A stretch of 64,000 bases of DNA, taken from contig JBAXKC010000002.1 of assembly GCA_037137535.1 (NCBI GenBank), positions 32,001 to 96,000 of the forward strand, written 5' to 3'. A program made the position numbers and the translations under genes. Of the stretch, positions 3,923-26,008 are shown in pieces. The notes below the pieces were generated by a model, which saw only the letters and a program-made list of their open reading frames with translations, was not told the origin of the DNA and ran no database searches. This DNA comes from a bacterium (GTDB lineage: Bacteria > Cyanobacteriota > Vampirovibrionia > Gastranaerophilales > JBAXKC01). The number at the start of each line of letters is the position of its first letter. Position 1 is the stretch's first letter.

Positions 3923-3988
3923 AATAGAAATATTTTGATATTATTTATTAAGAATATTAAGATCACTTATAAAGATAAAATAAATAGA

Positions 3989-6900: not shown

Positions 6901-8074
6901 TATAACCAACTATATTATCCTTATTTTTACTCATAATTAATTCAAATTGTTTATTACAACCTAAATAAGAACCATTAAAATCTTTAAAAAATATTGCATC
7001 AGGTATTGAGTTCAATAAACCCTCTAATAACAATGTCTTTTCTTCCAGAATTTTATTAGTTTTAATGGCCTTATATCTTGATAGAAATAAAAATAAACAT
7101 AATATGGCTAAGTTGAAAAATATAAAATAAATTACGGTTATTAATCTATTTATACCTTTATAAGCAGTATTAGAAGGTATAATAATAACCAAATGGTAAC
7201 TATCTGACAAATGTGAAATTATTGCTTCTTTTAAAACATTATTCTCTTTATAATCTTGAAGTTCATCAATTTTTTTATCAATAAGACCATGTTGCTTTGG
7301 GAGTAAATGATTTAGGACCTCTTTATTAAGATTGGAATTTCCATTTTGATTAGCTGAAGCAATATTGGTATAATTTTTACCTATTAAAAATAAGTCAGAA
7401 GCATTATATTTTGCTTTTAGTTCTTTTAATAAAGGCGTTAGATTACTAATTGCAATATCTATACCAGCTACACCTAATAAAACATTATTAATATATATAG
7501 GCTTAGAATAAGTAATCATCGGTATTTTTATATCAGGATCACTATATAAATCGCTCCATATACCTTTTTTAGCTTTTATTGCCTCAAAATAATATGTATC
7601 TTCTTTAGGTGTAAGTCTAGTACTATCCCCATAAGTTTTACTAATTTTATTATTTTTTTTAGTAAACCAAGTATAGTGGTCAGGTTTATTATTTGTCAAT
7701 TGAGGGTTAACTTGAAACCAAACACCTTCAGTCCAAGGAGTATTTTTAGCTATAACATAAATAAATGGTGTTATTTCAGATAAATATTTATCAATATAGT
7801 CCCTATCTTTTATTTTACTTTTATCAAATGAGTTCTCAATATAGTTTGATAATAAAATATTATTATTTTCTACGTTTTTTACTACATCATTTAAAATAGT
7901 AAGTGATGTTCTTGCTTTTATATTGTGCATTAAAGTGTTTTTCATTGTTCTGATAACTATATCAGTACTTTTTATCGCAAATAAAAAAGTCCCTAATAAA
8001 AGAGATATAGTAAATAATAATGAAATAGTAAGTTTCAAGTATTTTTTATCTATTAATTTATTTGTTATATTCAT
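3989..8074 (-). CDS. Hybrid sensor histidine kinase (Cache-like, TM, 3 PAS, HisKA, HATPase, 2 receivers, HPt)
   Basis: [28 protein letters not shown], receivers LLDYLMP and LMDCQMP, HPt [11 protein letters not shown], Cache-type WSDLY..ITYSKPI. Confidence 0.95.
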
Positions 8075-8101: not shown

Positions 8102-9626
<1,525 letters not shown>

Positions 9627-9627
9627 A

Positions 9628-10026
9628 TTATTCCTTAATCAGATTAAATTCTACTAACTTTTGAATGAGTTTTTCTTTGACGATTGGCTTAACAATATAA
9701 GCTTCACATTGTGATCTAAAGGCTTTTTTAATATTATCAGAGTCATCTAGAGCAGTTGTCATTATAACCTTTGTACCATCAAGATCATATTTGCCTTTTT
9801 CTTTTTCTATTTCTCTTATTTTATCAAGTGCAGTATGACCATCCATTTCAGGCATCATAATATCAAGACAAATGAGGTCATAAGCATCCCATTCATCCAA
9901 TGCAAACTTTACCGCTTCTACTGCTTCTACTCCGTTAACTGCTACATCACATTGACCATAAGCAGAAAGATATTTTATAAGAATTTTCCTGTTTACAAAG
10001 TCATCATCGACAATTAATATTTTCAT
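9628..10026 (-). CDS. Single-domain response regulator (CheY-like)
   Basis: ILIVDDD, LDIMMP, YIVKP; inside the che operon. Confidence 0.9.
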   Translation of the reverse strand: MKILIVDDDFVNRKILIKYLSAYGQCDVAVNGVEAVEAVKFALDEWDAYDLICLDIMMPEMDGHTALDKIREIEKEKGKYDLDGTKVIMTTALDDSDNIKKAFRSQCEAYIVKPIVKEKLIQKLVEFNLIKE

Positions 10027-10035
10027 ATTTTACTC

Positions 10036-10851
10036 CTATAAAATGTTTTTTAAGTATACAGTCGGTTGAACATATTCGAATTTATATTGCTTTTGATTAA
10101 GACTTTCTGAATGACCAATAAATAAAAGGCCCCCACCTGTAAGCACATTGTAAAACTTCTTTATAAGTTGTTCTTGAGTCTCAAAATTAAAATATATCAT
10201 TACATTTCTACAAAAAATAATGTCAAAAGTATTTTGAAAGGGAAAATGATCCATTAAGTTAAAGGTCCTAAAAGTTATTAATTGCTTTAACTCAGGAACT
10301 ACAGCGTATTCATCCCCGACACGAGTAAAATATTTTCCAAGAAAATATGGATTAATCATATCTTCAGGATCTAGTTTATAAGTAGCTTTTTGTGCTTTTT
10401 CTATTATACCTGCGCTGACATCTGTTGCTAAAATTTTAATATTAATACCTGGTGGTAAATATTCTTTTAAAACAATTGCCAAAGTATAAGCCTCTTTTCC
10501 ATTAGAACAAGCAGACGACCATACTCTTATTTCATTGTTTCTTAGTATTCTAGGATTTTTTTTAAAAATAGAATCAAGTTTATTTCTAATAAATTCAAAA
10601 TGGTTATCTTCTCTAAAGAAATTAGTTTTATGAATTGTAATCTCATCAACAAATTGAGACCAATGAATACTTTTAGAGTTATTGATAAGAAACGTATAAT
10701 ATTCCTGATAAGTTTCTATGTTAAGCGCTCTCATCAATTTACCGACTTTTGACTGAACCATTTCACGCTTTGCTTCACTTATATGAATACCTAACTTATC
10801 ATATATAAGCATTTTGAAGTTATCAAATTGTTTATCTTTTAGTTTTTCCAA
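10036..10851 (-). CDS. cheR: Chemotaxis methyltransferase CheR (TTG start)
   Basis: TNFFRE, WSSACSNG, DIIFCRNVMIYF, GHSESL. Confidence 0.96.
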   Translation of the reverse strand: MEKLKDKQFDNFKMLIYDKLGIHISEAKREMVQSKVGKLMRALNIETYQEYYTFLINNSKSIHWSQFVDEITIHKTNFFREDNHFEFIRNKLDSIFKKNPRILRNNEIRVWSSACSNGKEAYTLAIVLKEYLPPGINIKILATDVSAGIIEKAQKATYKLDPEDMINPYFLGKYFTRVGDEYAVVPELKQLITFRTFNLMDHFPFQNTFDIIFCRNVMIYFNFETQEQLIKKFYNVLTGGGLLFIGHSESLNQKQYKFEYVQPTVYLKNIL

Positions 10852-10883
10852 AATTTTCTCACTTTATAAATAAAATTAAATAG

Positions 10884-10911
10884 CTGACAGGGCAATATAA
10901 TGCCCTGTCAG
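10884..10911 (-). terminator. Intra-operon stem-loop between MCP and cheR
   Basis: Perfect 11-bp stem CTGACAGGGCA/TGCCCTGTCAG, 6-nt loop, followed by T-rich sequence on the minus strand. Confidence 0.7.
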
Positions 10912-10924
10912 AATACTTTTATTA

Positions 10925-12901
10925 TTAGAAGCCTTGCATATCATCTTCTAAAGGAATTACATCTTCAGGTCTAACTGTTTTTGTAGTTTTATTAGATGCA
11001 AAACTATTATTAGAAATTCTTCTGTTAATATTCGGAATTACTTTTCTTTGAAAAGATCTATCAGAAAGTGCAATTTGAGCTTGTTCCTGAATAGCGTTTG
11101 CGCCATTAACAAGTTGAACCAGAGAATTAACAATCTCTTTCATATTAACAGACTGTGAAGATAATTCTTCTGATGCTGAGGCACTTTCTTCAGCCGTTGA
11201 TGCATTAGATTGAACAACTTGTTCCATTTGTGAAATTGCTTTATTAATTTGAGCAATACCTTGAGCTTGTTCTTGACTTGCTGCTGCAACTTCGTCAAGA
11301 AGTTCACTAACTTTTTGAGCTTGATCATTAATTTCCGCTAATGATTCATTTACGTTTCTTGAAACATTAACACCCTGTTCTGATAAATGAATATTGCTTT
11401 CAATAATTTCAGCAGTGTCTTTAGCAGCTTGAGCACTTCTTTGAGCAAGATTTCTAACTTCTTCGGCAACTACTGCAAAGCCCATACCTGCTTCACCTGC
11501 TCTGGCTGCTTCAACAGCAGCGTTTAATGCAAGAATATTTGTTTGGAAAGCAATTTCATCAATTACTTTAATAATTTTAGCAATTTGATCACTTGATTTT
11601 TTAAGCTCTGCCATAGAAGTCATCATTTCTTGCATTTCATTATTGCCTTTGCTTGCTGCATCTTTGGCATGTTTTGCAAGAATAGCAGCTTGTTTAGTAT
11701 TTTCTGTATTTTGACGAACCATTGATGCAGATTGTTCTAGAGTTGATGATGTTTCTTGAATAGAAGCGGCCTGCTCAGCACTACCTTCTGCAAGTTGTTG
11801 GCTTGATGCCGATAATTGACCTGATGCCGAAGACACTTGGCTTGCACTTTCATTTAAGCCGTCAACAATTCTATTAATAGGTTTGGTTATGCCAATAACA
11901 ATCACCCAAGCTAAGAATGAACCAAGACCGACAGCTGCAATTAATCCAATTATCATTAATCCTGATGAAGCTGCAAGGGCAATAGCTGAACTTGAAGCAG
12001 AACCTTGTGTTGCTTTCATACCGACTTCAGCCGTATCTTTTGCTGCAGCTAATACTAAATCTGCCGTTTCACTGCGTTTTTTACTAATTTCCTGTAATTT
12101 TAACCATTTATCTAAAAATGAATTCATTGTTTCTTTGTAAACAGCTCCTGCCACTTTGTTTTTTGCTATTTGTGATTGCTCAAAAGCTGAGTTATTGAAT
12201 TGTTCGAGTTGCGCAAGTTTTGAAGAAATTGTATCAAAGTTTTTATTTGTATCTCTAATAATTTGAGGATTACGTTCCGCTTGGGATTTAAAAGTATCTC
12301 TTATAATCCAATTACCTGAGTCAATTAAATCATTAACAATACCAGCTTTTTGTGAGAATTCTTTAATTTTAGCTGTCTTACCTGATGCAATTCCTTTTTT
12401 TATTTCAGTATTTTGAAGAGCAAGATAATCATAACAAGTTTTCATATAATCAGCTGCAGATTGATTTAACTTATTTTGATCTTCGTTCATTGCCTTAATT
12501 GTACTTTCTGTATCATTAAGGTGTTGTATATACTCATCAACTTTAGTCTGCGCTTTAGCAGCATTCGCTTTTAAATCACTAAGATCAGAATATTTACTAC
12601 CTAATTCTGTTGCATCTTTTAAATAAGAATTTAATTTTTCCAAACCTTTTCTAGCTTCATCAAGATATTTTGTATCGTAAGTAAATCCATAACTTCTAGC
12701 TGCCAGCATAATAGAAAGTGATGTTCTTTCAACGTTATTTGCTACCGCAACAGAAGGAACATATTCATTTGCTAATTTACCTGATTGTATTTGTGCATTT
12801 TTCATTGCTAAAACACAAAAAGTGCCTAAAACTACAGAAATGAGTAGAATGGCTGCAAAGCCTGCAGATATTTTAAAACCTAATTTCATATTATTAAACA
12901 T
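10925..12901 (-). CDS. Methyl-accepting chemotaxis protein (2 TM, helical periplasmic domain)
   Basis: [39 protein letters not shown]-terminal pentapeptide-like tail DMQGF. Confidence 0.97.
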
Positions 12902-13391
12902 TCACTAAACCCACTTTCGTCTCACTACCTAATAAGCTAACTATTTCATCACAATTTATTATTGTTTCAATATTGAGAAGCATTACAACCTTACCTTTAA
13001 CTTTACCGAGTCCTGTTAAAAAACCTGTTTCAATCTTAGTGCTTCCATATTGTGGTGGTGGTTCTATCTCAGAAGATTGAATATTTACAACCTCTGATAC
13101 AGTATCAACGACAATACCCATAAGCCGTTTAAACTGATTAATATTTACTTCAACAACAATAATACATGTCCGTTCGTTATAATCTTTTTCAGACATTTTA
13201 AATTTGAGGCGTAAGTCCATAATAGGGATAATTTTGCCCCTTAAATTTATTACACCTTTAATAAATTCAGGGGTTTGCGGTACATGAGTAATTTCCATCA
13301 ATCCAATAATCTCTTTGACTTTGAGAATAGGAATTCCATATTCCTCATTGCCCAGCGAGAAAGTTAGATGTTTTCCATCTTGAATTTCCAC
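12894..13391 (-). CDS. cheW: CheW adaptor (GTG start)
   Basis: [38 protein letters not shown]. Confidence 0.97.
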
Positions 13392-16063
13392 TATTGTGCT
13401 CCTTCTTTTTCATATAAGTGCTCAATATCAAGTATTAATGAGACTTTTCCATCTCCTAAAATAGACATTCCGGAAACATATTTTAAATTTGAGAACTCTT
13501 GTCCTGTAGGCTTAACTACAATTTCTTGTCTTCCTATTACATTTCTCACAGGAAGAGCTTTAAATTTTTGATCTAATTCAACAATTACTATTAATCTAGG
13601 CTCTTCTTCAGGTTTTCCTGTCTTAAATAATTCTGATACTGAAATAATAGGCATAATGTCTTCTCTTACTTTAATCATAGACTTAATACCTTGAATACAG
13701 ACCCACTGCTCTTCTTTAGGTTGTAAAATTTGTTTAACGTTTACCGTAGGAATAATATAATTTGAACCTTCAATATCAACAATAGTTCCATTTAAAACGG
13801 CGTGATTTACTGGAATTTTAAGAATAAAGGTGCTACCTTGACCTTTAACACTATTTATCTCAAGTTTTCCTCCTATTTTTAATATTTCTGTTTTTACAAC
13901 ATCCATACCAACTCCTCTGCCTGAAATATTATTAGCTACTTCAACAGTGGAGAAGCCGGGTAACAAAATGAAATCCTGTATTTCTTTTTCACTATAATCT
14001 TTATTAGGATCAATAAGATTTTTTTCTAAGGCCTTATTATAAACTTTATCTATATCAATACCTTTACCGTCATCAGAAATTTCAATATAGATACTGCCTC
14101 TTTTATTGTATGCAAAAACTTGAACGTTACCTTGTGGAGATTTACCAGACTTAATTCTTTCTTCTTTTGTTTCAATTCCATGTGAAATCGAATTTTTGAC
14201 AAGATGAACTAGCGGATCTAGTATTTTTTCTGTGACAATTCTGTCAATTTCAGTATCATCACCTATTGTTGTAAAATTAATATCTTTACCGAGTTCATTA
14301 ATAGTATCTCTCGCAATTCTAGTAATTTTTTGAAATGTAGACTTTAGAGCAACCATTCTAAGAAACATTGAAATATTCTGTAAATCTTTTGTTATTCTTG
14401 TCATTCTTCCAAGATTGGCTATAAAGAAATTATCCGTTGCATATTTATTAATAGAATGTTGCTCAATTAAAGATTGTGCGATTATAAGCTCTCCAACCAT
14501 ATCAACAAGACTATCAACTTTACTGGTTGCAATTCTCATATATTCTTCTGATGAAGCATTTTGTTTAGTTTGTTGTACTTTTAAAGCACCTAGAGCTTCT
14601 ACTGATTTAATTTTATCTTCTTTAACAGCAACTTGACCAAATTTTAAATCTGGATATTGTTCTTTTTGAATTAATAGAACTTCATTTACATCTTCTTGAT
14701 CTAATATCTTTTGTTCAACAAGAATTTCTCCAATTTTTTTACCATTTAAGTTTATAGCTTCAACACAATGAAGTTCATAATATTCAATTTCTTGTAGATG
14801 ATGATTAATAGTGGAAATAAAACCTCTATCTTTTGCAATACTAATATCATCACATATTTTTTTTATAAAATCTGATGAAGCTAGAATTAGATTAACAATA
14901 GTCTTATCAACATCAATCTTTCCTTTTCTGCAACTATCCATTAAAGTTTCAGTTTGATGAGCAATTTTTTGAATTAAAGTTTGATTTACAAAACCTGCTA
15001 ATCCTTTTATAGTATGGAAAGCTCTAAACATTGAATGTATTATTTCAGCATCATCAGGTGTTTTTTCAAGAGAAAGAAGTTGCGTTTCAATTGATTCAAT
15101 ATGTTCTTTTGCTTCAAAGATGAAGTCCTCTAAAAACTCATCATCAACTGCATCTTCAGCATTAAGCTGTTCTTCTTGAATTTGCTCTTCTTCTTTAAGA
15201 TCTGCCAAATATTTATGAACATCATTTAGAAATTCATTATTTTTGATTAAAGTTAAATCATCACAAATCTTTTTTATTAAATCAACAGATTTGAAAAGAA
15301 AAGTTATAGTATTTGAATTTACTCTCATAGTTCTTTTTCTACAACAATCAAGTAAAGATTCAGTATCTTGAGATATTCTCTGAATTAAAACTTGCCCCGA
15401 AAAACCTGCTAAACCTTTAATAGAGTGAATATCTCGAAATAATAAGTGAATAAAGTTATCATCTTCTAAGTTTTTCTCAAGGTTAATTATATTTTTTTCA
15501 ATTGAATCAAGATGATCTTTGGCTTCAAGAACAAAATCTTCCCAAAATTCATCATTAGCAGCTTCGACTATTTCTATCGTCCCCTCGATAATATTATCTA
15601 AATTATTATTTAGCTCTCTTTCAAGGTTTATAAGGTGCTTTTGAATTTGATCGATAAAGTCTTCATCGGTGCTCATATCTAAATTTTCACAAATAGTCTT
15701 AATAAAATCTGCTGATAATAATAATAAATTAGTTATATTTACATTGACCTTACTTGTACCTTTTCTGCAACAATCCATCAATGTCTCAGTTTCATGGGCA
15801 ATTTTCTGTATTAAGGATTGTCCGACAAATCCTGATGAGCCTTTGATATTATGAAAAGCTCTAAACATTATGTTTATAGAATCGATATTATCAAAATCTT
15901 GCTCAAGAACAAGAGCATTAAACTCAATTATCTCGAGTTCCTCAATTGCTTTTATGATAAATTCAGGAAGAAATTCTTGATAATTAATAGTTTGAGTACC
16001 TACAAACATTTCCTCTTCAAGAAGGCTTCTTAATATATCATCAGGATTAAAATCTTCAGTCAA
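13391..16063 (-). CDS. cheA: CheA kinase with three HPt (P1) domains and an MshEN-like segment (TTG start)
   Basis: Three FRxxHxIKG motifs; LVDMVGEL dimerisation domain; HLVKNSISHG, DDGKG, SGRGVGMDVV; C-terminal CheW domain. Confidence 0.96.
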   Translation of the reverse strand: MTEDFNPDDILRSLLEEEMFVGTQTINYQEFLPEFIIKAIEELEIIEFNALVLEQDFDNIDSINIMFRAFHNIKGSSGFVGQSLIQKIAHETETLMDCCRKGTSKVNVNITNLLLLSADFIKTICENLDMSTDEDFIDQIQKHLINLERELNNNLDNIIEGTIEIVEAANDEFWEDFVLEAKDHLDSIEKNIINLEKNLEDDNFIHLLFRDIHSIKGLAGFSGQVLIQRISQDTESLLDCCRKRTMRVNSNTITFLFKSVDLIKKICDDLTLIKNNEFLNDVHKYLADLKEEEQIQEEQLNAEDAVDDEFLEDFIFEAKEHIESIETQLLSLEKTPDDAEIIHSMFRAFHTIKGLAGFVNQTLIQKIAHQTETLMDSCRKGKIDVDKTIVNLILASSDFIKKICDDISIAKDRGFISTINHHLQEIEYYELHCVEAINLNGKKIGEILVEQKILDQEDVNEVLLIQKEQYPDLKFGQVAVKEDKIKSVEALGALKVQQTKQNASSEEYMRIATSKVDSLVDMVGELIIAQSLIEQHSINKYATDNFFIANLGRMTRITKDLQNISMFLRMVALKSTFQKITRIARDTINELGKDINFTTIGDDTEIDRIVTEKILDPLVHLVKNSISHGIETKEERIKSGKSPQGNVQVFAYNKRGSIYIEISDDGKGIDIDKVYNKALEKNLIDPNKDYSEKEIQDFILLPGFSTVEVANNISGRGVGMDVVKTEILKIGGKLEINSVKGQGSTFILKIPVNHAVLNGTIVDIEGSNYIIPTVNVKQILQPKEEQWVCIQGIKSMIKVREDIMPIISVSELFKTGKPEEEPRLIVIVELDQKFKALPVRNVIGRQEIVVKPTGQEFSNLKYVSGMSILGDGKVSLILDIEHLYEKEGAQ

Positions 16064-16081
16064 AATTTAAAATCTCCAATA

Positions 16082-16450
16082 TTAAATTAATGTTTTATTT
16101 AATTTCTCCACAAATTTATCAGGAGTAAACGGCTTTAATAAAAAATTTCTCACGCCAACCGTAATAGCTTCTCGAATAATAGACTCTTGCCCCATCGCAG
16201 AAACCATAAGTATTTTTTTATCAGGGTGTATCTCAAATATTTTTTTAGCAGCTTCTATACCGTTTAGTTCAGGCATAGTAATATCTAAAGTTATCAAATC
16301 ATAATTATTAGCTTTATCCATTTCAATAGCTTTTAGTCCATTTGGTGCATATTCAATATTAGAATAACCATTATCCTTGAAAATCTTTTGAATCATTGAA
16401 AACATAAATGCTTGGTCATCAACAACGAGTATTTTAATATTTTTTTCCAT
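16082..16450 (-). CDS. cheY: CheY-family response regulator
   Basis: VVDDQ, LDITMP, MVSAMGQ, KPF. Start moved from 16483 to ATG 16450 (MEKNIK), behind AAAGGT. Confidence 0.88.
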   Translation of the reverse strand: MEKNIKILVVDDQAFMFSMIQKIFKDNGYSNIEYAPNGLKAIEMDKANNYDLITLDITMPELNGIEAAKKIFEIHPDKKILMVSAMGQESIIREAITVGVRNFLLKPFTPDKFVEKLNKTLI

Positions 16451-16516
16451 AATTTTAATACCTTTATAAAGCAGACCATTCAATTATATAGGTTTTATTA
16501 TTAAATGTCTCCAAAT

Positions 16517-16984
16517 TTATTCTATTGAATATGCAATATTGAATTTAGAGGTACCTAGCTTAAAAAATATTTTTTTTGATGGAGCCCTACTTATCATCAT
16601 AAACATTTTACTACCTGTTACAATTGTAGGCGGAGTAATATCAACAAGCTCATTAATAGCTTCAGCAACTTTTCCAACGGTATTTCCACCAAGCATGTTT
16701 GTAAACTCAGCTAGAGCACTTTTGCCCATAGAGTCAAGCTCTAAAACCTCTGCACCACCCATCATTCCTGAAATAATACTTAATGCAGTCTCTTTCGTCA
16801 GGCCAAGCACTATATTTCCATTTAACCCTTTGGTTAAACCTATTAATACATTAACTTCTTCTCCAGAATTTAATGATTTCTCCGACAATTCGCACAAAAA
16901 TTTTGGTTCAAGGCCAAACATTGGTAAAAGCTCTGAACATGCATTAATTATCGGATCTTTTAAACTAGAAATTTTTGCAGACAA
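16517..16984 (-). CDS. cheX: CheX-family phosphatase (TTG start)
   Basis: VLIGLT..L.G.I, SALAEFTNM (ExxN), ITPPTIVTG. Confidence 0.88.
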   Translation of the reverse strand: MSAKISSLKDPIINACSELLPMFGLEPKFLCELSEKSLNSGEEVNVLIGLTKGLNGNIVLGLTKETALSIISGMMGGAEVLELDSMGKSALAEFTNMLGGNTVGKVAEAINELVDITPPTIVTGSKMFMMISRAPSKKIFFKLGTSKFNIAYSIE

Positions 16985-16987
16985 AGT

Positions 16988-17464
16988 TTATACCTCTTCA
17001 ATACCTATATCAATAATAAAACTACCTTGTTCTCCTGAATAATAAGCAACTTCCGAATGTATTGTCGGTGATAATATTTCAAGATTTTCAGCAGAAAAAA
17101 TAGCAGGAGGACTAAGCCAGAATTCTCTGTTTTGATACTCATTATTTATATATGTAGTAGCTCTACCACAAAACATATTTGCAAACTCTGCTACATACAA
17201 ATACATATCTTTTGGATCTTCGAAAAAATCACCAAAATTCATTGCCACTGCGAAATTACTTGCTGTTTCAAAGTCACTTTCAAGAAGAATTCGACCTTTC
17301 GTATTTCCACATATTCCAATAATAATGGCAACCTTTGCATTATCTTTTAAAATATTTTCTGAGACGACATTGTACTCTGAATCAACAAGCTCTTTTGTAA
17401 TTTCAGTAAATGCTTTTTTCACATAATCAATAAATTTTTCAATTTTAATAACTTCAATAGACAT
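16988..17464 (-). CDS. cheX: CheX-family phosphatase, second copy
   Basis: IIIGICG..KGRI, VAEFANM (ExxN), LSPPAI. Confidence 0.82.
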   Translation of the reverse strand: MSIEVIKIEKFIDYVKKAFTEITKELVDSEYNVVSENILKDNAKVAIIIGICGNTKGRILLESDFETASNFAVAMNFGDFFEDPKDMYLYVAEFANMFCGRATTYINNEYQNREFWLSPPAIFSAENLEILSPTIHSEVAYYSGEQGSFIIDIGIEEV

Positions 17465-17465
17465 A

Positions 17466-17828
17466 TTAAAGACCTAACAATTCATTTGCAGCCGCAATAA
17501 GTTCATCAGGTTTAAAGGGTTTTGTTACAAAATGGGTTATACCTAATGCTTTTGCTTCATTTACTAATACATCATCACCCATCGCGCTCAACATAATTAT
17601 TTTGACATTTTTATTAATCTCAAATAATCTTGCAGCAGTAGCTATACCATCCATTATTGGCATAGTAACATCCAGCGTGATAAGATCAGGCTGATATTTC
17701 TCATACATTTCTAAGCCTATTTGTCCATTTGATGCATTATCAACTACTTCAAATGATTTTGGCTCTAATGCTCTTTTAACAGCTTTGTAGATAAAAGGGG
17801 AATCATCAATTACAAGAACCTTAACCAT
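17466..17828 (-). CDS. cheY: CheY-family response regulator, first gene of the che operon
   Basis: VIDDS, LDVTMP, LSAMG, KPF; AGGAG RBS. Confidence 0.9.
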   Translation of the reverse strand: MVKVLVIDDSPFIYKAVKRALEPKSFEVVDNASNGQIGLEMYEKYQPDLITLDVTMPIMDGIATAARLFEINKNVKIIMLSAMGDDVLVNEAKALGITHFVTKPFKPDELIAAANELLGL

Positions 17829-18549: not shown

Positions 18550-21500
18550 ATGAAAATTGACTTGGGTTTTAATTCATTCAAGGCTAATATAACTACTAAA
18601 AATAAAGAAAACTCAAATGCAATTGATCAGAACGCTGACAAAATAAATAATGCCAATATAACAACTCAGGTGCAAACTTCTAAACCTCAATCTAATCCAA
18701 TTACAAATGTAATTAATGGATTAAATCTTCATAAAGTTAATAGTAATAGACTTAAACCTTTAGATTCGGATCAATTTAAAACACCTACTAAATCTAATAT
18801 TAATCAAAATCAACATAATATTACTAATTCAGGTGTTTCTAAGCCTGATATTATTTCTAATGCGCCATTGATAAAAAAAACAGGTACAGCAATTAAACAA
18901 ATAATATCTGCTATTGATAACACTGAAAAATCAATTAATAATCTTAAAATACAGCCCGATAAAATAGAAAGCATAATATCAGAGGAAAATGAACTACCAA
19001 TTCATAGTTCAGATTTATTAGAAATAAGTGCATCTGACAAAACAACAAAAACTCCAATATCAAAACAAATTATTGATGCAATTAATAATACAGAAAAATT
19101 AATTACCCCAAAAAGTGATTTTTCTGATAAAAATAAATCTTTAAAAAATGATATACAAATAGCTACAAGCAAAACGAACTCAACATTGCAAAATCAAGAA
19201 GTAAATGTACTAAATAATGAGATAAAATCAATTAACGGTCATGTTGATTTTCAAGATGATGTTAAACCCACTACAGATAAAACTGCAATTTCAAGCATAA
19301 AAAGACAACAACCTATATCACAGCAAATTATTGATACAATTAACAATACAGAAAAATTAATTTCACCTAAAAATCGACCAGATGTTAATGATGTGGCTAA
19401 TTCTAGTCAAATACAAATGGTTGATGATTCGATTATTCCTGCCAATAAAGAAATAAAAGAACTAAATAAAGAAGTTAAAATTAATAATGAGAAAAAAACC
19501 GAACCAATATCTAAACAAATAATATCTGCTATTAATAATACTGAAAAATTAATTTCGACTAAAAATCAAACAGAGATTAATAATCTGGAAAATTCAAATC
19601 AAATAGTAGAAGTTGATGATTCTATTATTCCTAATATGCATCAAAAAAATGATACAAATATTGATGAAAAAACCAAAGTAGATCAATCAAGTTTGGCAGT
19701 AGATAATACTAATAAAAAAGCAGCTACAACCACGCTCAAACAAATTATGAGTGCAATTGATAATACAGAAAAATTAATTAATCCAAAGAATCAATTAAAT
19801 CCTTCTAAAATTAACCTATCTGAAGATATTAAACCAAAAAAAATACAGATTTCTGCAATTCCAAATTTGGTGGATATAAAAGAAAATATTCAAATTGCAG
19901 GTAAAGAAGTAAAAATAGTTGCTAATAAAAATATGACATTTGAATCATGTCCAGTTGCAACATGGAATATTAAAATTGACGAAGATAAGTCAGTTAAAAA
20001 GCAACAAATTCAGTTTGCAAACGGAAGTCAAAACGCATTAATTACGACATATAAATACGAAGCACCGCTAAATGCTCCTGATTTAGATATTGAAGTTCTT
20101 GCTAATAAAAATCCGAATAATTTTGATACAAAATTAAATATAAATATCAGTAGTTCAACAGTTAATAAAAACGAATCACTGAAAGAAAATGAAATAAATA
20201 AAAAAATTATTACAATGAAACCAAATGAAACAGTTTCTATATCAGTTTCTAACACAGAAAAAAATATAAATATCAAACCCGAACAAATAATATCTAGACA
20301 AGACCAAGGAATTGAAAATGCCTTAATAAAAGCAAGGATTCCAACCACTAATGAAGCAAAAGAAGCTTATAGTTTAGCTAAACAGTTTATTTCCATAGGT
20401 AAGGAAATAAATTCGAATTCTGCAGCAGATAAAAATAATAATGCTGATAAAGAAGCTATAACGTTGCTTCCAACTTATGCATTAACACTTAAAAGAAATG
20501 ACATGACAAGAAATTCACTAAAAAATTACTCCGAATATGTAAAAAATGTGCTTTTAACTCCTGATTTAAAGCCAAAAGATAATGTTCATGATGATATTAT
20601 CAAAATTGCAATGCTTTGGAGCTCTTCATTAAATGATTTTAGTAATCAAACTCAATCGCTTGAAGATTTAGACGTGATAAAAGAGCAATATAGTTTAATT
20701 AAAAACATTATGAATATTCAAATTGAAGAAACAAAAAATAGTGAAAAAAGTAATGTTATAGACAATGATGGTTTAATAAAATTAACAAATTCTCAAAACA
20801 CGTTAACATCAGTAAGTTCAACAGAAAATTGTAATATCAATGCCGAAGGGAAATCTTTTGAAGCAAATGTACTTTGGTATAACGGATTAAAATCATTATC
20901 AGACATTGCTAAAACACTTGGTTACACAAGTGAACACGAAAAATTTTCAACAATGGCAAATATAGTTCAACAAAATTTAATGAAGTTCTGGGACGAGAAT
21001 CAAAATGGATTCAATTCTTTTATTGATAAATCAAATCCAGAACTATCAAAAATTGATAATACTTCACTACTGACAGCTTTAACTGTTACTAACAGACCAT
21101 TTGTAAATAAGCCTGAATTAGAAGCTGCAATTTTAAATAATGCCGAATCTCAAATATTTCCTGAAGAAGATAATCTGAATTCACATGTAAAAACAATACC
21201 AAGAGAAAAAACGGCTCAAGCAGCTCAGTATTTTGACGCTCTTATGAACTTTCAAAAAACCAATCCTGAACTTGTTTCGGATATAGAAATTAGCGAAAAT
21301 ATTGCGCCAATAATAAATAATCTCAAAAAGGATATGAATTTATTATTATCAATGAATAAACCACTAAATGGAATAGTTATACCTAATATAGATGCAATTC
21401 AATTGACTAATAGTAATGCTTGGACAGCAACAACAGTTCTTCAATTGATTAAAGGAACAGAGAATAAAATTTATGATGAAAATAAAAAAATAAAAACAGT

Positions 21501-21993
21501 TGAAGAAAATAAAATTCAACAAAAAAATGCTGATGTTATAACTTCTGAACAGCCATCTAAAATTGTGGTACAAAAACCTGAATACACAAATAAGCCTATA
21601 GCTGCATCTGAAGAAGACAGTAAAATTTCAGCTTTAGAAAAAGAAATAATAACAGAGCCAAATATTCAAATTAAAAAAGCAATAATACCAACTACAAAAC
21701 AAGTAGTAACAGAAAGTATAAAAATTGCAGCTCAAAAAGAGTTAAAAGATGCTCAAAGTAAACTGATAATAGAAAAACTTAAAGAGTCCTCAATCAATGA
21801 AGGAGCTGTTAATAATCCTGAAATTGCTAAATCAAGAAGAACTGAAATCATTAAATTCACTAAAAAATCTGATAAAGAAAAAGACAATAAAGAAGAGCTT
21901 GCTGATGGTGTATTAGCTGAAATAATGAGCACTTTTGGCGACCTTATGCAAAGTGTATTTAGCGGAATAACTAACGGAATATCCGGCAAATAA
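18550..21993 (+). CDS. Large protein: N-terminal repeats plus degenerate amylo-alpha-1,6-glucosidase (glycogen debranching C-terminal)-like domain
   Basis: EGKSFEANVLWYNGL resembles the GDE_C motif GKxVExNALWYNAL; also FWDE and NAWTATTVL (cf. QAWSVAE). Five internal repeats. Confidence 0.6.
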   Translation: MKIDLGFNSFKANITTKNKENSNAIDQNADKINNANITTQVQTSKPQSNPITNVINGLNLHKVNSNRLKPLDSDQFKTPTKSNINQNQHNITNSGVSKPDIISNAPLIKKTGTAIKQIISAIDNTEKSINNLKIQPDKIESIISEENELPIHSSDLLEISASDKTTKTPISKQIIDAINNTEKLITPKSDFSDKNKSLKNDIQIATSKTNSTLQNQEVNVLNNEIKSINGHVDFQDDVKPTTDKTAISSIKRQQPISQQIIDTINNTEKLISPKNRPDVNDVANSSQIQMVDDSIIPANKEIKELNKEVKINNEKKTEPISKQIISAINNTEKLISTKNQTEINNLENSNQIVEVDDSIIPNMHQKNDTNIDEKTKVDQSSLAVDNTNKKAATTTLKQIMSAIDNTEKLINPKNQLNPSKINLSEDIKPKKIQISAIPNLVDIKENIQIAGKEVKIVANKNMTFESCPVATWNIKIDEDKSVKKQQIQFANGSQNALITTYKYEAPLNAPDLDIEVLANKNPNNFDTKLNINISSSTVNKNESLKENEINKKIITMKPNETVSISVSNTEKNINIKPEQIISRQDQGIENALIKARIPTTNEAKEAYSLAKQFISIGKEINSNSAADKNNNADKEAITLLPTYALTLKRNDMTRNSLKNYSEYVKNVLLTPDLKPKDNVHDDIIKIAMLWSSSLNDFSNQTQSLEDLDVIKEQYSLIKNIMNIQIEETKNSEKSNVIDNDGLIKLTNSQNTLTSVSSTENCNINAEGKSFEANVLWYNGLKSLSDIAKTLGYTSEHEKFSTMANIVQQNLMKFWDENQNGFNSFIDKSNPELSKIDNTSLLTALTVTNRPFVNKPELEAAILNNAESQIFPEEDNLNSHVKTIPREKTAQAAQYFDALMNFQKTNPELVSDIEISENIAPIINNLKKDMNLLLSMNKPLNGIVIPNIDAIQLTNSNAWTATTVLQLIKGTENKIYDENKKIKTVEENKIQQKNADVITSEQPSKIVVQKPEYTNKPIAASEEDSKISALEKEIITEPNIQIKKAIIPTTKQVVTESIKIAAQKELKDAQSKLIIEKLKESSINEGAVNNPEIAKSRRTEIIKFTKKSDKEKDNKEELADGVLAEIMSTFGDLMQSVFSGITNGISGK
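18892..19780 (+). repeat. Five dispersed coding repeats, consensus (PIS)KQIIsAInNTEKLI
   Basis: IKQIISAIDNTEKSI, PISKQIIDAINNTEKLI, PISQQIIDTINNTEKLI, PISKQIISAINNTEKLI, LKQIMSAIDNTEKLI. Confidence 0.9.
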
Positions 21994-22004: not shown

Positions 22005-22748
22005 TTAATCCTCTATTTCAACTTTTGCATTGGGATTAAAGGGATTAGTCCGCAATATAAGTGAATATACAAAAGGATAATCAGTTCTTAAATGGTTAAC
22101 ATATAATAACCATTGGCTTATTAGTGAAACATAAACTCTTTTTATATCATTTGAAATATGCTCATAGTCATTTTTTGATAAATTATCAATATCTTTTCTA
22201 TATTCAAGTTCTTGCATTAAATGACAAACTGCCCACAACAAATCACTAAAAAGTTCATGTTCTAATAGGTTTTGATTTTCTAAAAGACTCAACAAGAAAC
22301 TTTTATTATTAATTAGTATATCTTTAATTTTTTTTATAATTATAGAGTCATTTTTAATTTTATAATTATGGTTCTCTATGTTTTTCTTTACAGAAATAAA
22401 ATCTTTTTCTTTCCATTTTGCAGAAATATTCAATAACTCTCTTATTTTATCAAGATTTATATCACTATTAGAGAGTATTTTTAATAATTCTACTCCTAAT
22501 TGAGTAAAAAAAGCACCGATAACCATATACATTTTATTTTGAAGTGCATTTTTCTCTCTAACTGCAATTATTTTGGTAATAATTAAAGTCACAATTAAAA
22601 TTTGCAATGGCAAGAAAGCTAAATCCTGAAATAAGTAAAAAAAGGTGTCCTGTGGTTTATTAAAAATAAAAATCTGAAGAACGTAGATTCCTGTTGAAAT
22701 GAAAACCAGTAAAAAGCCCATTAATATATATTTCAGCAATTTATTCAT
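22005..22748 (-). CDS. Hypothetical membrane protein (2 N-terminal TM helices)
   Basis: Hydrophobic N-terminus with QDLAFLPLQILIVTLII, then a soluble helical C-terminal region. Confidence 0.8.
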   Translation of the reverse strand: MNKLLKYILMGFLLVFISTGIYVLQIFIFNKPQDTFFYLFQDLAFLPLQILIVTLIITKIIAVREKNALQNKMYMVIGAFFTQLGVELLKILSNSDINLDKIRELLNISAKWKEKDFISVKKNIENHNYKIKNDSIIIKKIKDILINNKSFLLSLLENQNLLEHELFSDLLWAVCHLMQELEYRKDIDNLSKNDYEHISNDIKRVYVSLISQWLLYVNHLRTDYPFVYSLILRTNPFNPNAKVEIED

Positions 22749-22770
22749 TATCTTAAATCCATTATTAATC

Positions 22771-22796
22771 TAATAATCTATTCAAATAGATTATTA
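22771..22796. promoter_or_regulatory. Perfect inverted repeat TAATAATCTATT-CA-AATAGATTATTA in a divergent promoter region
   Basis: 12-bp arms with a 2-nt spacer, too short a loop for a terminator; lies between divergent genes. Confidence 0.45.
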
Positions 22797-22950
22797 AGAA
22801 TAGAAGTAAGTGTAAAGCATAATCAATTTTAAATACTTTTATAAATTTTTATTAATTAAATTTAGAAAGATAGAGATGACTTTTATCAAAATATCTTCGG
22901 TTTGCCTTATAATATAAGCAAGTTACGTATAAAAAATTGGAAAAAAGTCA

Positions 22951-23868
22951 TTGAAAACTATAAATGAAAAATCTAAGCTTTCTCTCATAAAAAAAACAGC
23001 TGATGGAATAAGAAAAAGAGTTCTTGAGCACACTATCACCAATAATGGCGGTTATTTGAGTCAGGCATGCTCTTCTGCCGAAATATTCGCATCACTTTAT
23101 GAAGAAATCATGAATTTAGGTTCAATAGAAGCACCAATGATGCCTGAACAATTCGTTAGTGTCCCGAATAAAAACTTTCCTTTCAAAACAGGGGCTGATT
23201 TTAATGGTAAAAAGTCTGAAGAAACAGATAGGTTTATACTATCGCCAGCACAATATGCTTTAGTTCTATATGCAGCTTTAGTTGAAGTAGGGCGTATGGA
23301 CAATGAAGGAATGCTTCAATTCAACAAAGACGGAAGTACCGTTGAAATGATCGGTGCAGAACATTCACCCGGAATGGAAGTTATGACCGGCTCATTAGGG
23401 CAAGGATTAAGTCAGGCTTCAGGCATTGCAATGGCAAGAAAATTAAAGGGTGAAACCGGTAATGTATGGGTATTTATGTCAGACGGAGAGTTTCAGTCCG
23501 GTCAAAACTGGGAAGCTATTCAAGCAGCTTCATTTCATGAATTAAGCAATCTTAAAATTATTGTTGATGTAAACAGACAACAATGCGATGGAGCAATTAG
23601 CTCTGTTATGACTATTGAACCCTTTGATACTAGATTATCGTCTTTTGGCGCTCATGTAGTTTCACTTAACGGGCATGATATTCAAGGAATAATTGACGCA
23701 GCAAATGTCGATACGGGAAATAAACCACTTGTTATTCTTGCAAATACTAACCCATCAGAAGGATTTGAACTTTTAAATAAAAGAGCTCCGAAGCTTCATT
23801 ATGTTAGATTTACAAGTGCCGAAGAAAAAAGTATGTATGAAAAAGTCCTTGCGGACATAAATAAATAA
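22951..23868 (+). CDS. Split transketolase, N-terminal ThDP-binding subunit (divergent active site; TTG start)
   Basis: DRFILS, TGSLGQG, SDGEFQSGQNWEA..N ThDP motif, NGHD. Confidence 0.9.
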   Translation: MKTINEKSKLSLIKKTADGIRKRVLEHTITNNGGYLSQACSSAEIFASLYEEIMNLGSIEAPMMPEQFVSVPNKNFPFKTGADFNGKKSEETDRFILSPAQYALVLYAALVEVGRMDNEGMLQFNKDGSTVEMIGAEHSPGMEVMTGSLGQGLSQASGIAMARKLKGETGNVWVFMSDGEFQSGQNWEAIQAASFHELSNLKIIVDVNRQQCDGAISSVMTIEPFDTRLSSFGAHVVSLNGHDIQGIIDAANVDTGNKPLVILANTNPSEGFELLNKRAPKLHYVRFTSAEEKSMYEKVLADINK

Positions 23869-23881
23869 TTTAGGAAGAATA

Positions 23882-24889
23882 ATGGAAGTATTATCAAAAG
23901 TTCACGCTAAAAACCTTATAAAATGGGCAGAAGATAAAAAAGAAGTAGTTGTTTTATCAGCTGATTTAACAAGCTCTACAGAAGCAGATTTATTTAGAGA
24001 CACTTACCCTGAAAGATTCTTTTCGATGGGAATAGCAGAACAAAATATGCTAAGTTTTGCAGGTGGAATGGCACGAGAAGGATTTATTCCTTTTATTCAC
24101 ACTTTTGCCGTTTTCATATACAGAAGAGCTTACGATCAAATTGCTATGTCTGTTGCATATCCAAACCTTCCTGTAAAAATGTTTGGATTTTTGCCTGGTA
24201 TAACAACACCTGGTGGAGCTACTCATCAGGCAATAGAAGATATTTCCGTAATGCGCTCGCTTCCTAATATGACAATCTTAGAATGTGGAGATGCAACGGA
24301 AGTTGAATCCGTTACAGAACTTGCCTATTCAATTGATGGACCTGTTTATATAAGAATGTTAAGAGGCGAAATACCTAGATTATTTGATAAATCAGAACCT
24401 ATGGAATTTAAAAAGCCAAGATTACTTTCATCAGGAACTGATATAACGATAATTTCAAGCGGAATATGTACAGAAGAAGCAATGAGGGCAATTACCGCAA
24501 TTAAAAAACGAGGAATATCAGTTTGTCATTACCATATTTCAACATTAAAGCCGTTTGATTTTGACAGTATTGCTGATTCTGTAAAAAACACTAAATATGG
24601 TGTTATAACCATGGAAAATCATTCTGTAATTGGTGGATTAGGCAGTATTATTGCCGAAGGTATTGCAGAAGCAGGAATAAGCACTAAATTCAAAAAAATA
24701 GGACTTCGTGATACGTTTGCTCATGGTGGAAGCAAAAGCTATTTAATGAGCAAATATAAAATTGATGCGATTGCATTAATTGAAGAAGTTGAAAAAATAA
24801 TTGGCGAAAAGCTTAACATTCAAGAGGCCGAACTTGCAAAGGTTCATATTACAGCCGTTCATAGTTTGGCAAAAGCGGAGGCTCTCTAA
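23882..24889 (+). CDS. Split transketolase, C-terminal subunit
   Basis: SADL, MGIAEQNM, RAYDQI, ATHQAIED, GPVYIR, ENHSVIGGLG. Confidence 0.92.
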   Translation: MEVLSKVHAKNLIKWAEDKKEVVVLSADLTSSTEADLFRDTYPERFFSMGIAEQNMLSFAGGMAREGFIPFIHTFAVFIYRRAYDQIAMSVAYPNLPVKMFGFLPGITTPGGATHQAIEDISVMRSLPNMTILECGDATEVESVTELAYSIDGPVYIRMLRGEIPRLFDKSEPMEFKKPRLLSSGTDITIISSGICTEEAMRAITAIKKRGISVCHYHISTLKPFDFDSIADSVKNTKYGVITMENHSVIGGLGSIIAEGIAEAGISTKFKKIGLRDTFAHGGSKSYLMSKYKIDAIALIEEVEKIIGEKLNIQEAELAKVHITAVHSLAKAEAL

Positions 24890-26008
24890 ATGATTTCTAA
24901 TGATCGTTTTATTGTCGAATATTTAATCAAAGGAACAGAAAAAGAAGCCTATGCTAAGGCAGAAGACATTTGCGTAGAACAGACTATAGAATTTCCTAAA
25001 GATTTAGTAACAAGTCAACTAATTCTTGATCAAATAATTGGTAAGATTGATTCATTTGAAAAAGTAGCCGAGGGTTACTTAGCAAAAATCAGCTTTGCAA
25101 TAGAAATAACATCTTTTGAATTTACTCAACTATTAAACGTTATTTTTGGAAATATCAGTATAAAACCAGGCATAAAAGTTCAAAAAATTGACCTGCCAGA
25201 CTCTTTATTAAAACATTTTAGCGGACCTCGTTTTGGAAGAGAAGGAATAAGAAAACTTTTAAATGTCTATGACAGACCATTACTTTTTACTGCTTTAAAA
25301 CCGATGGGTTTATCAGCAAAAGAACTTGGGGAATTAGCTTATAAATTTGCACTAGGCGGAATTGACATAATAAAAGACGATCATGGACTTACAAATCAAA
25401 TTTTTGCACCATTTAACGACAGAGTAAAATACTGCGTTGAAGGTGTAGAAAAGGCTAATGAGGAAACAGGTTTAAACTGTATTTACGTTCCCAATATCAC
25501 AGCATCGTATGATGATACAATGACAAGAGCTGTAAAAGCTAAAGAACTTGGTGCAAAAGGGATTATGCTTGCACCTGCTATTACAGGACTTGATGCAATA
25601 AAAAAACTAGCTGACGATGATAATATGAATCTACCTATTTTTAGTCACCCAGCCTTTCAAGGAAGCTACTTAACCTGTTCTGAAAGTGGATTTTCTCATT
25701 ATGCACTTTTAGGTCAAATTACAAGATTAGCTGGAGCAGATGGAGTTATATATCCAAACTTCGGTGGTCGTTTTGCGTTTACAAAAGAAGAATGTAACAG
25801 TATTGCAAATGGTACTGCTGTTAAAATGGGTGATATAAAAGAAATATTTCCTTGCCCAGGCGGAGGAATGAGCCTTGATAAAATACCTGAAATGGTTGAA
25901 GTATACGGAAAAGAAGTTATTTTCTTAATGGGGGGCGGATTATTCAGACACAGCGATGATCTGGTCGAGAATTGTAGATATTTTAAGAAAATGGTTCAAC
26001 AATTTTAG
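24890..26008 (+). CDS. rlp: RuBisCO-like protein (form IV), resembling the Rhodospirillum rubrum (DeepYkr-type) RLP
   Basis: VEQTIE, FGNIS, GPRFG, ALKPMGL, GGIDIIKDDHGL, SHPA, YPNFGGRF, PGGGM, GGG; ATG immediately follows the upstream TAA. Confidence 0.92.
   Translation: MISNDRFIVEYLIKGTEKEAYAKAEDICVEQTIEFPKDLVTSQLILDQIIGKIDSFEKVAEGYLAKISFAIEITSFEFTQLLNVIFGNISIKPGIKVQKIDLPDSLLKHFSGPRFGREGIRKLLNVYDRPLLFTALKPMGLSAKELGELAYKFALGGIDIIKDDHGLTNQIFAPFNDRVKYCVEGVEKANEETGLNCIYVPNITASYDDTMTRAVKAKELGAKGIMLAPAITGLDAIKKLADDDNMNLPIFSHPAFQGSYLTCSESGFSHYALLGQITRLAGADGVIYPNFGGRFAFTKEECNSIANGTAVKMGDIKEIFPCPGGGMSLDKIPEMVEVYGKEVIFLMGGGLFRHSDDLVENCRYFKKMVQQF

Follow-up and report, generated by a model that had tools for sequence, protein, structure and literature searches.

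What does a transketolase-like enzyme do beside a RuBisCO-like protein (RLP) when residues with which transketolases (TKs) hold their sugars have been exchanged for others? The question is posed by an operon in a 64,000-nucleotide stretch, here called the window, of contig JBAXKC010000002.1 from a member of the Gastranaerophilales. A sequence-only reading had taken positions 22951 to 24889 for a transketolase whose active site appears rewired for a donor lacking a C1 hydroxyl. The interval holds two open reading frames (ORFs), not one, on the plus strand, as are all features of the operon. The first, at 22951..23868, starts with TTG and encodes the 305-aa N-half of the enzyme (TK-N), with the PP domain that binds thiamine diphosphate (ThDP); the second, at 23882..24889, encodes the 335-aa C-half (TK-C), with the Pyr and C-terminal domains; and the 13-nt spacer between them (23869..23881) carries AGGAAG ahead of the TK-C start codon. 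The third gene encodes a form IV RLP of 372 aa (24890..26008), and its ATG, with GGAGG just 5′ of it, begins at the base next to the TK-C stop codon. The three genes are one operon. As judged from their sequences, TK-N and TK-C would form a heteromeric ThDP enzyme of the transketolase superfamily beside a probable DeepYkr-type RLP isomerase. Its substrate, direction and products we infer: on balance, the enzyme probably cleaves the RLP product to glyceraldehyde 3-phosphate and a two-carbon (C2) unit in thioether or deoxy form.

The superfamily assignment has several parts, namely three Pfam domains above gathering score, a TK fold, a metal-binding motif and the activating Glu. TK-N matches Transketolase_N at 72.6 bits (cut-off 22), and TK-C matches Transket_pyr at 114.6 bits (cut-off 27) and Transketolase_C at 69.9 bits (cut-off 25.9); the third ORF matches RuBisCO_large at 122.9 bits. 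AlphaFold2, run on family alignments, gave a predicted local distance difference test score (pLDDT) of 87.2 and a predicted TM score (pTM) of 0.89 for the N-half, and 81.6 and 0.85 for the C-half; pLDDT falls below 50 in the loop that corresponds to E. coli H100 (residues 128-138) and in the C-half tail (322-335). The top Foldseek matches are 6yak for the N-half (TMq 0.75) and 6yaj for the C-half (TMq 0.80), followed by human TK. At the finer level of NCBIfam equivalogs (transketolase, 1-deoxyxylulose 5-phosphate [DXP] synthase, MtnW and RuBisCO), all three proteins of the triad are below cut-off. Against the transketolase model NF004559 (cut-off 488), the N-half scores 172.4 and the C-half 218.7 bits; halves score lower against a full-length model, but even the sum is short of the cut-off; against TIGR00232 (cut-off 682), the scores are 64.9 and 46.4 bits.

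Active-site residues and their conservation

Residues of the N-half are numbered plainly and those of the C-half with a prime (e.g., Gly111′); reference positions are those of E. coli TktA, and the identities of the E. coli residues at 26, 66, 100, 155, 185, 261, 358, 385, 411, 461, 468, 469, 473 and 520 were checked by script. Alignments were made with HMMER against the split TK of Carboxydothermus hydrogenoformans (6YAK/6YAJ) and against human TK; with hhalign, as family alignments, against E. coli TktA and Dxs (K-12 record); and with MAFFT, on the full-length representatives (at least 250 aa) among 150 listed plus both E. coli references. The residue mapping rests on these sequence and profile alignments, since the fold comparison returned no residue map, and the hhalign comparison of the N-half with Dxs (probability 19.9) was too weak for use. 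Four alignment methods agree on the substrate-side replacements. The HMMER pairs, against split and human TK, read GGY/SGH, SPAQY/SKGHA, SDGE/GDGE and PGGATHQ/EDGASHQ. All of the motifs quoted in the sequence-only reading are present in the two ORFs, and HMMER, hhalign and MAFFT all bear out the replacements listed there.

The motif GGYLSQACS (23047..23073) puts Tyr35 at the H26 position, with Gln38 and Cys40 conserved beside it. In SPAQYA (23242..23259), Pro99 stands where the split TK has Lys68, and Gln101 occupies the H66 position; the R91 position is Asn125 (by hhalign), and that of split-TK Lys240 is Pro268. The loop DGSTVEMIGAEHSPG (23329..23373) has Met133 and Ile134 in place of the G-H100 pair, with His138 conserved. 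The H100 column itself falls on Met133 by hhalign and by HMMER against 6YAK, or on Ile134 by HMMER against human TK and by MAFFT, and the His is missing under either placement. The cofactor motif MSDGEFQSGQ (23476..23505) has Ser177 for the first Gly of GDG and retains the metal ligand Asp178; DVNRQQCDG (23566..23592) retains the metal ligand Asn208 and has Cys212 at the position of split-TK Ile182; and PKLHYVRF (23788..23811) retains His283 at the H261 position. In the C-half, GFLPGITTPGGATHQ (24185..24229) carries Leu104′ at H461, Pro110′-Gly111′ at E468-D469, and the retained His115′ at H473. Thus the cofactor ligands and the E411, H261 and H473 equivalents are kept, and the canonical His cluster H26/H66/H100/H261/H473 becomes Tyr35, Gln or His101, Met133/Ile134, His283 and His115′, of which two are always His. 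The trio that meets the acceptor C2 hydroxyl, D469/R91/H26, is here Gly111′, Asn125 and Tyr35. In the phosphate-site set, R358 corresponds to Arg or Lys6′ (hhalign being off by one), S385 to Ser32′, R520 to Arg161′ and H461 to Leu104′.

These residues were counted in 240 homologues for N-half positions (120 split and 120 fused) and in the 120 fused homologues for the C-half. Tyr35, Gln38, Cys40, Pro99, Tyr102, Glu132, Met133, Ile134, His138, Ser177 and Asp178 are shared by 239 of 240, with one gap; Cys212 is replaced once, by Ala, and is otherwise Cys (239); and Asn208, His283, Tyr284 and Arg286 are identical in all 240. In the C-half, Ser32′, Glu53′ (the Glu that activates the aminopyrimidine), His73′, Arg81′, Arg82′, Phe103′, Leu104′, Pro105′, Pro110′, Gly111′, His115′ and Arg161′ are identical in 120/120, and position 6′ is either Arg (103 sequences) or Lys (17). 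Hence what had been noted for one protein (Tyr for H26, no His at H100, SDG for GDG, Gly for D469, and a retained H261-like LHY) holds across the family, and, given this invariance, the replacements are, by the comparison of sequences, not the product of chance. The catalytic machinery is intact and strongly selected, and the invariance of the E411, D155, N185, H261 and H473 equivalents indicates an active ThDP enzyme. The 2 conserved cysteines, Cys40 (23068-23070) and Cys212 (23584-23586), are near-invariant and might conceivably act in catalysis, for instance in acyl transfer.

Two further stretches set the family apart. Between helix 1 and the DRF motif lies a family-specific insertion of about 25-30 residues (residues 55-90, 23113..23220), where both HMMER and hhalign alignments break; P62, P65, F68, G81 and G86 are constant in it across a 26-sequence family alignment, and it is absent from the aligned solved TKs. 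The C-half ends in a family-conserved tail, ...HSxAKAEAL (residues 310-335, 24809..24886), of which S328, K331, E333 and L335 are kept in 118/120 homologues; the alignment with 6yaj stops at residue 307. This tail could contact the RLP or reach an active site.

Among 8000 candidates scored, 7218 are relatives at E ≤1e-3; the best 120 relatives are 54-100% identical to the window protein, all except two of them 58-82%. An exhaustive HMMER search of 1.84 billion representatives gave 83 matches at E ≤1e-30. Members come either split or, in 315 proteins at E ≤1e-40, as one chain of roughly 660 aa, and databases label the homologues simply "transketolase." In relatives less than about 45% identical, these motifs pass gradually, first to those of further divergent TK-like groups and finally to those of canonical split TKs (SGH/KGH/GHP/GDG/WHGK).

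Published work gives these positions a function. H66, H100, G114 and H473 bind the donor in TK, and H100 is consistently Phe in DXP synthase, as the sequence-only reading had stated (PMC7661550). Exchanging H100 for Phe or Leu gives the Geobacillus TK activity with pyruvate, which as a donor lacks the C1 hydroxyl (PMC7661550), and the same effect of H100 with pyruvate is described for the E. coli enzyme, where, in the wild type, the methyl group of the hydroxyethyl intermediate would sit amid H26, H66, H100, H261, D469 and H473, a placement that Leu at position 100 relieves (bioRxiv 10.1101/719906). H26, R91 and D469 form a hydrogen-bonded network, and H26 and H66 co-vary (PMC3657141). In the split TK, Lys68 and Lys240 bind the cofactor diphosphate and Ile182 contacts the thiazolium (PMC7661550).

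Genome neighbourhoods and gene fusions

A survey that took a single genome from each species yielded 80 loci, found in Rhizobium, Ensifer, Shinella, Devosia, Brucella, Rubellimicrobium, Myxococcales, Bacillota, Chloroflexota, one actinobacterium and one gammaproteobacterium. TK-C follows TK-N in 78 of the 80, the remaining 2 stopping at a contig edge, and in 2 of those 78 TK-C is itself cut by the contig end, which leaves 76 loci with a complete TK-C. The RLP gene lies downstream of TK-C in 69 of these 76. Counted at E ≤1e-8 with at least half of the query covered, an MtnA-like gene is present in 60/80 loci, an MtnK-like gene in 59/80, and each of three components of an ABC transporter of ribose type in 57-60 of 80. 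The MtnK-like and MtnA-like proteins that were scanned are above their NCBIfam cut-offs (three MtnK-like proteins at 378-506 bits against 275, and two MtnA-like proteins at 430-450 bits against 279).

Moreover, the RLP and the TK-like enzyme occur as one polypeptide. Two full-length diatom proteins, one of 1066 aa from Discostella pseudostelligera (P0402) and one of 1130 aa from a Conticribra weissflogii transcriptome (P0416), run RLP, TK-N, TK-C. Each contains RuBisCO_large, Transketolase_N, Transket_pyr and Transketolase_C and shows the family motifs; identity to the three proteins of the window is 43-54%. Three more fusion fragments (P0126, P0130 and P0131), whose clusters include the two full-length proteins, have the same order. 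The fusions speak independently for joint action of the RLP and the TK-like enzyme and, being found in centric diatoms, place the module in eukaryotic algae. With the operon linkage and the MtnK and MtnA scores, they give strong support to the link with the neighbouring RLP that the sequence-only reading had drawn.

In 7 complete loci, no RLP lies downstream of TK-C. Three myxobacterial loci have an O-acetylhomoserine-sulfhydrylase-like gene after TK-C and a fourth has a CysK-like gene (L015:9956-11299, L022:9846-11210, L048:9918-10724 and L036:7607-8557), which ties the TK-like enzyme to thiol assimilation; another of the 7 has an NMT1-like gene and then ABC transporter genes. In L049, an O-acetylhomoserine-sulfhydrylase-like and a CysK-like gene (3924-5171 and 6755-7687) both lie upstream of the triad. 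A fusion of a class II aldolase with a short-chain dehydrogenase (SDR) occurs, judged by its SDR part, in 35/80 loci, and in rhizobial clusters and one actinobacterial cluster it is accompanied by a SorC-type regulator; in L014, for example, the regulator gene (11144-12091) precedes the gene of a 684-aa aldolase-SDR fusion (12154-14208). The fusion could provide a step of the dihydroxyacetone phosphate (DHAP) shunt parallel to the RLP/TK pair. One myxococcal locus (L004) has two radical-SAM genes downstream of the RLP (12893-16062), which may hint at 5′-deoxyadenosine salvage; each ORF of this stretch, used as a query, matched fewer than 8 of the 80 loci.

In the window itself, the triad stands between unrelated genes, with a minus-strand hypothetical membrane protein upstream and a convergent class 2 photolyase downstream. 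An Rfam scan of the window, which would cover a riboswitch or leader 5′ of the operon, gave nothing at gathering score, and the region 22600-23100 yielded one match at chance level (E 0.83). No terminator-like site was found, and promoter-like sites are no more frequent than expected by chance. Directly 5′ of the operon region is a gene for a 1147-aa protein (18550-21993, plus strand) whose sole Pfam match is amylo-alpha-1,6-glucosidase (GDE_C). Further upstream are a minus-strand chemotaxis cluster (8102-17828), encoding CheB, CheD, a response regulator, CheR, a methyl-accepting chemotaxis protein, CheW, an 890-aa CheA, CheX and two CheY-like proteins, and, upstream of that, a hybrid PAS histidine kinase of 1361 aa (3989-8074). 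On the other side, 20-30 kb from the operon and unlinked to it, are a 427-aa pyridoxal phosphate-dependent enzyme of Cys/Met metabolism, of sulfhydrylase or gamma-lyase type (46454-47737, minus strand), and a Cu-oxidase_4 (YfiH-like) protein (54434-55204, plus strand), for which a role in thiol or nucleoside salvage is possible. A 317-aa ORF with a Zeta_toxin/AAA_33 kinase-like domain lies at 48449-49402 on the minus strand. All seven window proteins looked up, housekeeping ones included, are singletons in 90%-identity clustering, which leaves the organism, with a G+C content of about 29%, without a near sequenced relative in that collection.

Candidate reactions

The reaction of the TK-like enzyme has to be read together with that of the RLP. 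The best solved relative of the RLP is 3qfw (E 4.9e-67, 230 bits), which we take to be an RLP of the DeepYkr clade; MtnW-type enolases and other RLPs reach at most 163 bits. DeepYkr RLPs convert 5-methylthioribulose 1-phosphate to 1-methylthio-xylulose 5-phosphate and 1-methylthio-ribulose 5-phosphate in a ratio of 3:1; a cupin then frees the sulfur as a glutathione adduct, yielding DXP, and O-acetylhomoserine sulfhydrylase recaptures the methanethiol (PMC5893883). No cupin was found in the 61 ORFs of the window (at 1e-3 and at 1e-10) or in 54 neighbouring ORFs from 8 of the surveyed loci (E 1e-8), searches that a weak match could escape.

In the pathway that we favor, MtnK or MtnP and then MtnA, encoded elsewhere, would supply 5-methylthioribulose 1-phosphate and possibly 5-deoxyribulose 1-phosphate, and the RLP would isomerise this 1-phosphate to 1-methylthio-xylulose/ribulose 5-phosphate (or DXP). 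The cofactor of the TK-like enzyme would then add to C2, the C2-C3 bond would break, and glyceraldehyde 3-phosphate would be released, leaving on the cofactor a C2 fragment that bears CH2-SCH3 (or CH3) in place of CH2OH. The pocket for the donor C1 hydroxyl would have turned less polar through Met133/Ile134 and Tyr35, and the C3/C4 side would have been rebuilt (Asn125, Pro110′ and Gly111′), perhaps to take both C3 epimers from the RLP. The distal phosphate site would be partly retained in Arg/Lys6′, Ser32′ and Arg161′; as the equivalents of S385 and R520 do not vary and Arg or Lys stands for R358, a 5-phosphate tail is favored. The C2 fragment could leave as (methylthio)acetaldehyde or acetaldehyde, a release as aldehyde that would resemble the DHAP shunt; alternatively, methanethiol could be eliminated to give acetyl-ThDP. 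From the same perspective, a natural Met or Ile at the H100 position, combined with an isomerase product that has CH2-SCH3 at C1, fits the idea of the sequence-only reading that the substrate has a methyl or methylthio group there. The hydrophobic position and the link to the RLP are what sustain that idea, and they accommodate a methyl and a methylthiomethyl group equally.

Several points weigh against cleavage of the RLP product. A change confined to C1 would not lead one to expect the loss of H26, R91, E468, D469 and H461. Four of these positions, H26, R91, E468 and D469, lie around the C3/C4 acceptor side, so the C1 reading accounts for only part of the remodeling, and DXP synthase, which handles a deoxy C2 unit, retains the D469 and H26 equivalents. 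The H66 position, presented earlier as a further signal of C1 chemistry, is Gln in the window protein and in 223 of 240 homologues, and His in 16; Gln is confined to the closest clade, and in remoter representatives from 50%-identity clustering the position is mostly His, so that the replacement is not family-wide; the equivalent residue of the split TK binds the cofactor diphosphate (PMC7661550), so the change says little about C1. In the AlphaFold2 model, the invariant H138 lies within the H100 loop of low pLDDT and could re-create a polar site there; new invariant histidines His73′ and His8′ are also present, and from these three a polar His cluster could be rebuilt. Outside the enzyme, mtnK, mtnA and mtnP are all missing among the 61 ORFs of at least 90 aa in the 64-kb window, hence where this organism obtains the substrate is not seen; nor does the window encode an obvious partner for the fate of the C2 unit, which a cleaving enzyme needs. 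Finally, the aldolase-SDR fusion might alone cleave methylthioribulose 1-phosphate, which would blur the role of the RLP/TK pair.

A more specific version of the pathway, which we put forward only tentatively and by analogy, makes the TK-like enzyme a ThDP-dependent C-S lyase. The enamine formed after cleavage would expel methanethiolate to give acetyl-ThDP, and the acetyl group would leave as acetate, acetyl phosphate or an acyl-enzyme, possibly via Cys212 near the thiazolium. The sulfhydrylase genes found in a few loci make the loss of methanethiol attractive, but they are not proof.

Among the alternatives, the one that survives best, though still an unlikely one, is that the enzyme belongs to the same methylthioribose/5-deoxyribose pathway with another substrate or another order of steps, cleaving, for example, 5-methylthioribulose 1-phosphate, with the phosphate on C1 and SCH3 on the tail, or acting on an RLP product different from that of Rhodospirillum or Rhodopseudomonas. 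The channel for the sugar tail has lost one phosphate ligand, and with Leu for H461 and Pro-Gly for E468-D469 its hydrophobicity has risen; the new invariant Arg residues R286 and R81′ could bind a C1 phosphate, and the RLP is only moderately similar to its best solved relative, which leaves its product unproven. Against this, the S385, R520 and R358 equivalents are conserved as for a distal phosphate, the C1 pocket (M133, I134 and Y35) is less polar and not more basic, and the tight coupling and fusion with the RLP are explained most simply if the two enzymes work one after the other, the RLP using what MtnA makes.

The reverse direction, a carboligase like DXP synthase that joins a deoxy C2 donor, derived from pyruvate or similar, to glyceraldehyde 3-phosphate or another aldehyde to give a 1-deoxy or 1-methylthio ketose phosphate, we consider improbable. 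The C-half profile is nearer to Dxs (hhalign probability 99.6, with a gapless active-site loop) than to TktA (95.3), and a hydrophobic H100 position is shared with DXP synthase. However, the Arg (DRAG) and Asp (GADG) with which Dxs binds glyceraldehyde 3-phosphate align with Leu104′ and Gly111′; the scores against the NCBIfam dxs model (TIGR00204; 171.8 bits for the C-half and 23.5 for the N-half) are far below its cut-off of 465.95; DXP synthases appear among the Foldseek matches of the C-half from rank 14 and are missing among the N-half matches listed; and the context of kinase, isomerase and transporter is catabolic.

Less probable again is an ordinary pentose-phosphate transketolase of a divergent lineage, for which the RLP neighbourhood would be meaningless. 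Such an enzyme would agree with the Pfam domains above cut-off, with the database name of its homologues and with a ribulose-phosphate 3-epimerase gene elsewhere in the window (60025-60687), but at least 7 substrate-side residues are family-invariant and unlike those of all solved TKs aligned, every NCBIfam TK equivalog is below cut-off, and its association with RLP, MtnK and MtnA persists across phyla and extends to fusions. Weakest of all is the reading of the enzyme as inactive, serving the RLP as a scaffold or in regulation: several of the catalytic His residues typical of TKs are gone, but the Glu that activates the cofactor, both metal ligands (Asp and Asn), the GSLGQG loop and the H261/H473 equivalents are invariant, and the invariance of the substituted positions themselves points to a selected active site.

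Comparison with known systems

Methylthioadenosine and 5′-deoxyadenosine are salvaged by the classical O2-dependent pathway, by the DHAP shunt and by the RLP-cupin isoprenoid shunt. Cleavage of the RLP product by the TK-like enzyme would, if true, add a further salvage branch, with a thioether or deoxy ketose as the substrate of new ThDP chemistry, and it would explain many of the "transketolase" annotations that adjoin form IV RuBisCO genes. No description of such a branch, and no link between transketolase and RLP or methylthioribose genes, was found in the open full-text literature, a search that leaves some key older papers uncovered, and the word "transketolase" is absent from PMC6302742, PMC8914248, PMC13454268 and PMC5893883. 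A Brachyspira genome paper that lists a split tkt and partial mtn genes proved unrelated, as none of the closest homologues of the window protein bears that name.

In architecture, the closest system is the split-gene TK of C. hydrogenoformans (6YAK/6YAJ; PMC7661550), which has two chains, three domains and Asp/Asn/Glu cofactor ligands and is the best match of both halves (E 2.6e-35 for the N-half and 2.8e-64 for the C-half). However, that enzyme is an active, canonical TK that retains SGH, KGH, GHP, GDG and GEDG, all of which are replaced in the window enzyme; nor does it share the insertion of the N-half or the conserved C-terminal tail. Dxs is alike in its ThDP superfamily, in a C2 unit without hydroxyl, in a non-polar H100 column and in an active-site loop of equal length in the C-half. 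It differs in being single-chain and biosynthetic, and in retaining the H26 and D469 equivalents and an Arg at H461, where the split window enzyme has Tyr, Gly and Leu. In the engineered H100L/F TKs of E. coli and Geobacillus, a hydrophobic position 100 likewise admits a donor whose carbonyl has no neighbouring hydroxyl. These variants were made in the laboratory and used with pyruvate as the donor, whereas the change described here is natural and invariant and comes with changes at H26, R91, E468, D469 and H461; the family thus offers natural examples of donor-pocket changes otherwise made by enzyme engineers.

In metabolism, a close relative is the methylthioadenosine-isoprenoid shunt of Rhodospirillum rubrum and Rhodopseudomonas palustris, where an MtnA-fed RLP makes 1-methylthio-xylulose 5-phosphate (PMC5893883). 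The shunt pairs its DeepYkr RLP with a cupin methylsulfurylase, whereas here a TK-like enzyme adjoins the RLP, and the carbon would reach glyceraldehyde 3-phosphate rather than DXP. With the DHAP shunt (MtnK or MtnP, MtnA and a class II aldolase), the proposed route would have in common the upstream steps and an outcome of triose phosphate and a C2 sulfur compound; there, an aldolase acts on the 1-phosphate to give DHAP, whereas here an isomerase and a ThDP enzyme would lead to glyceraldehyde 3-phosphate. For the possible release of methanethiol, the precedents are phosphoketolase and sulfoacetaldehyde acetyltransferase, in which the ThDP enamine expels a beta leaving group (water or sulfite) to give acetyl-ThDP. 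If the C-S lyase reading were true, the TK-like enzyme would complete a third route from methylthioribose to methanethiol, cupin-free and oxygen-independent, with all five carbons recovered and a spread from Bacillota and rhizobia to diatoms.

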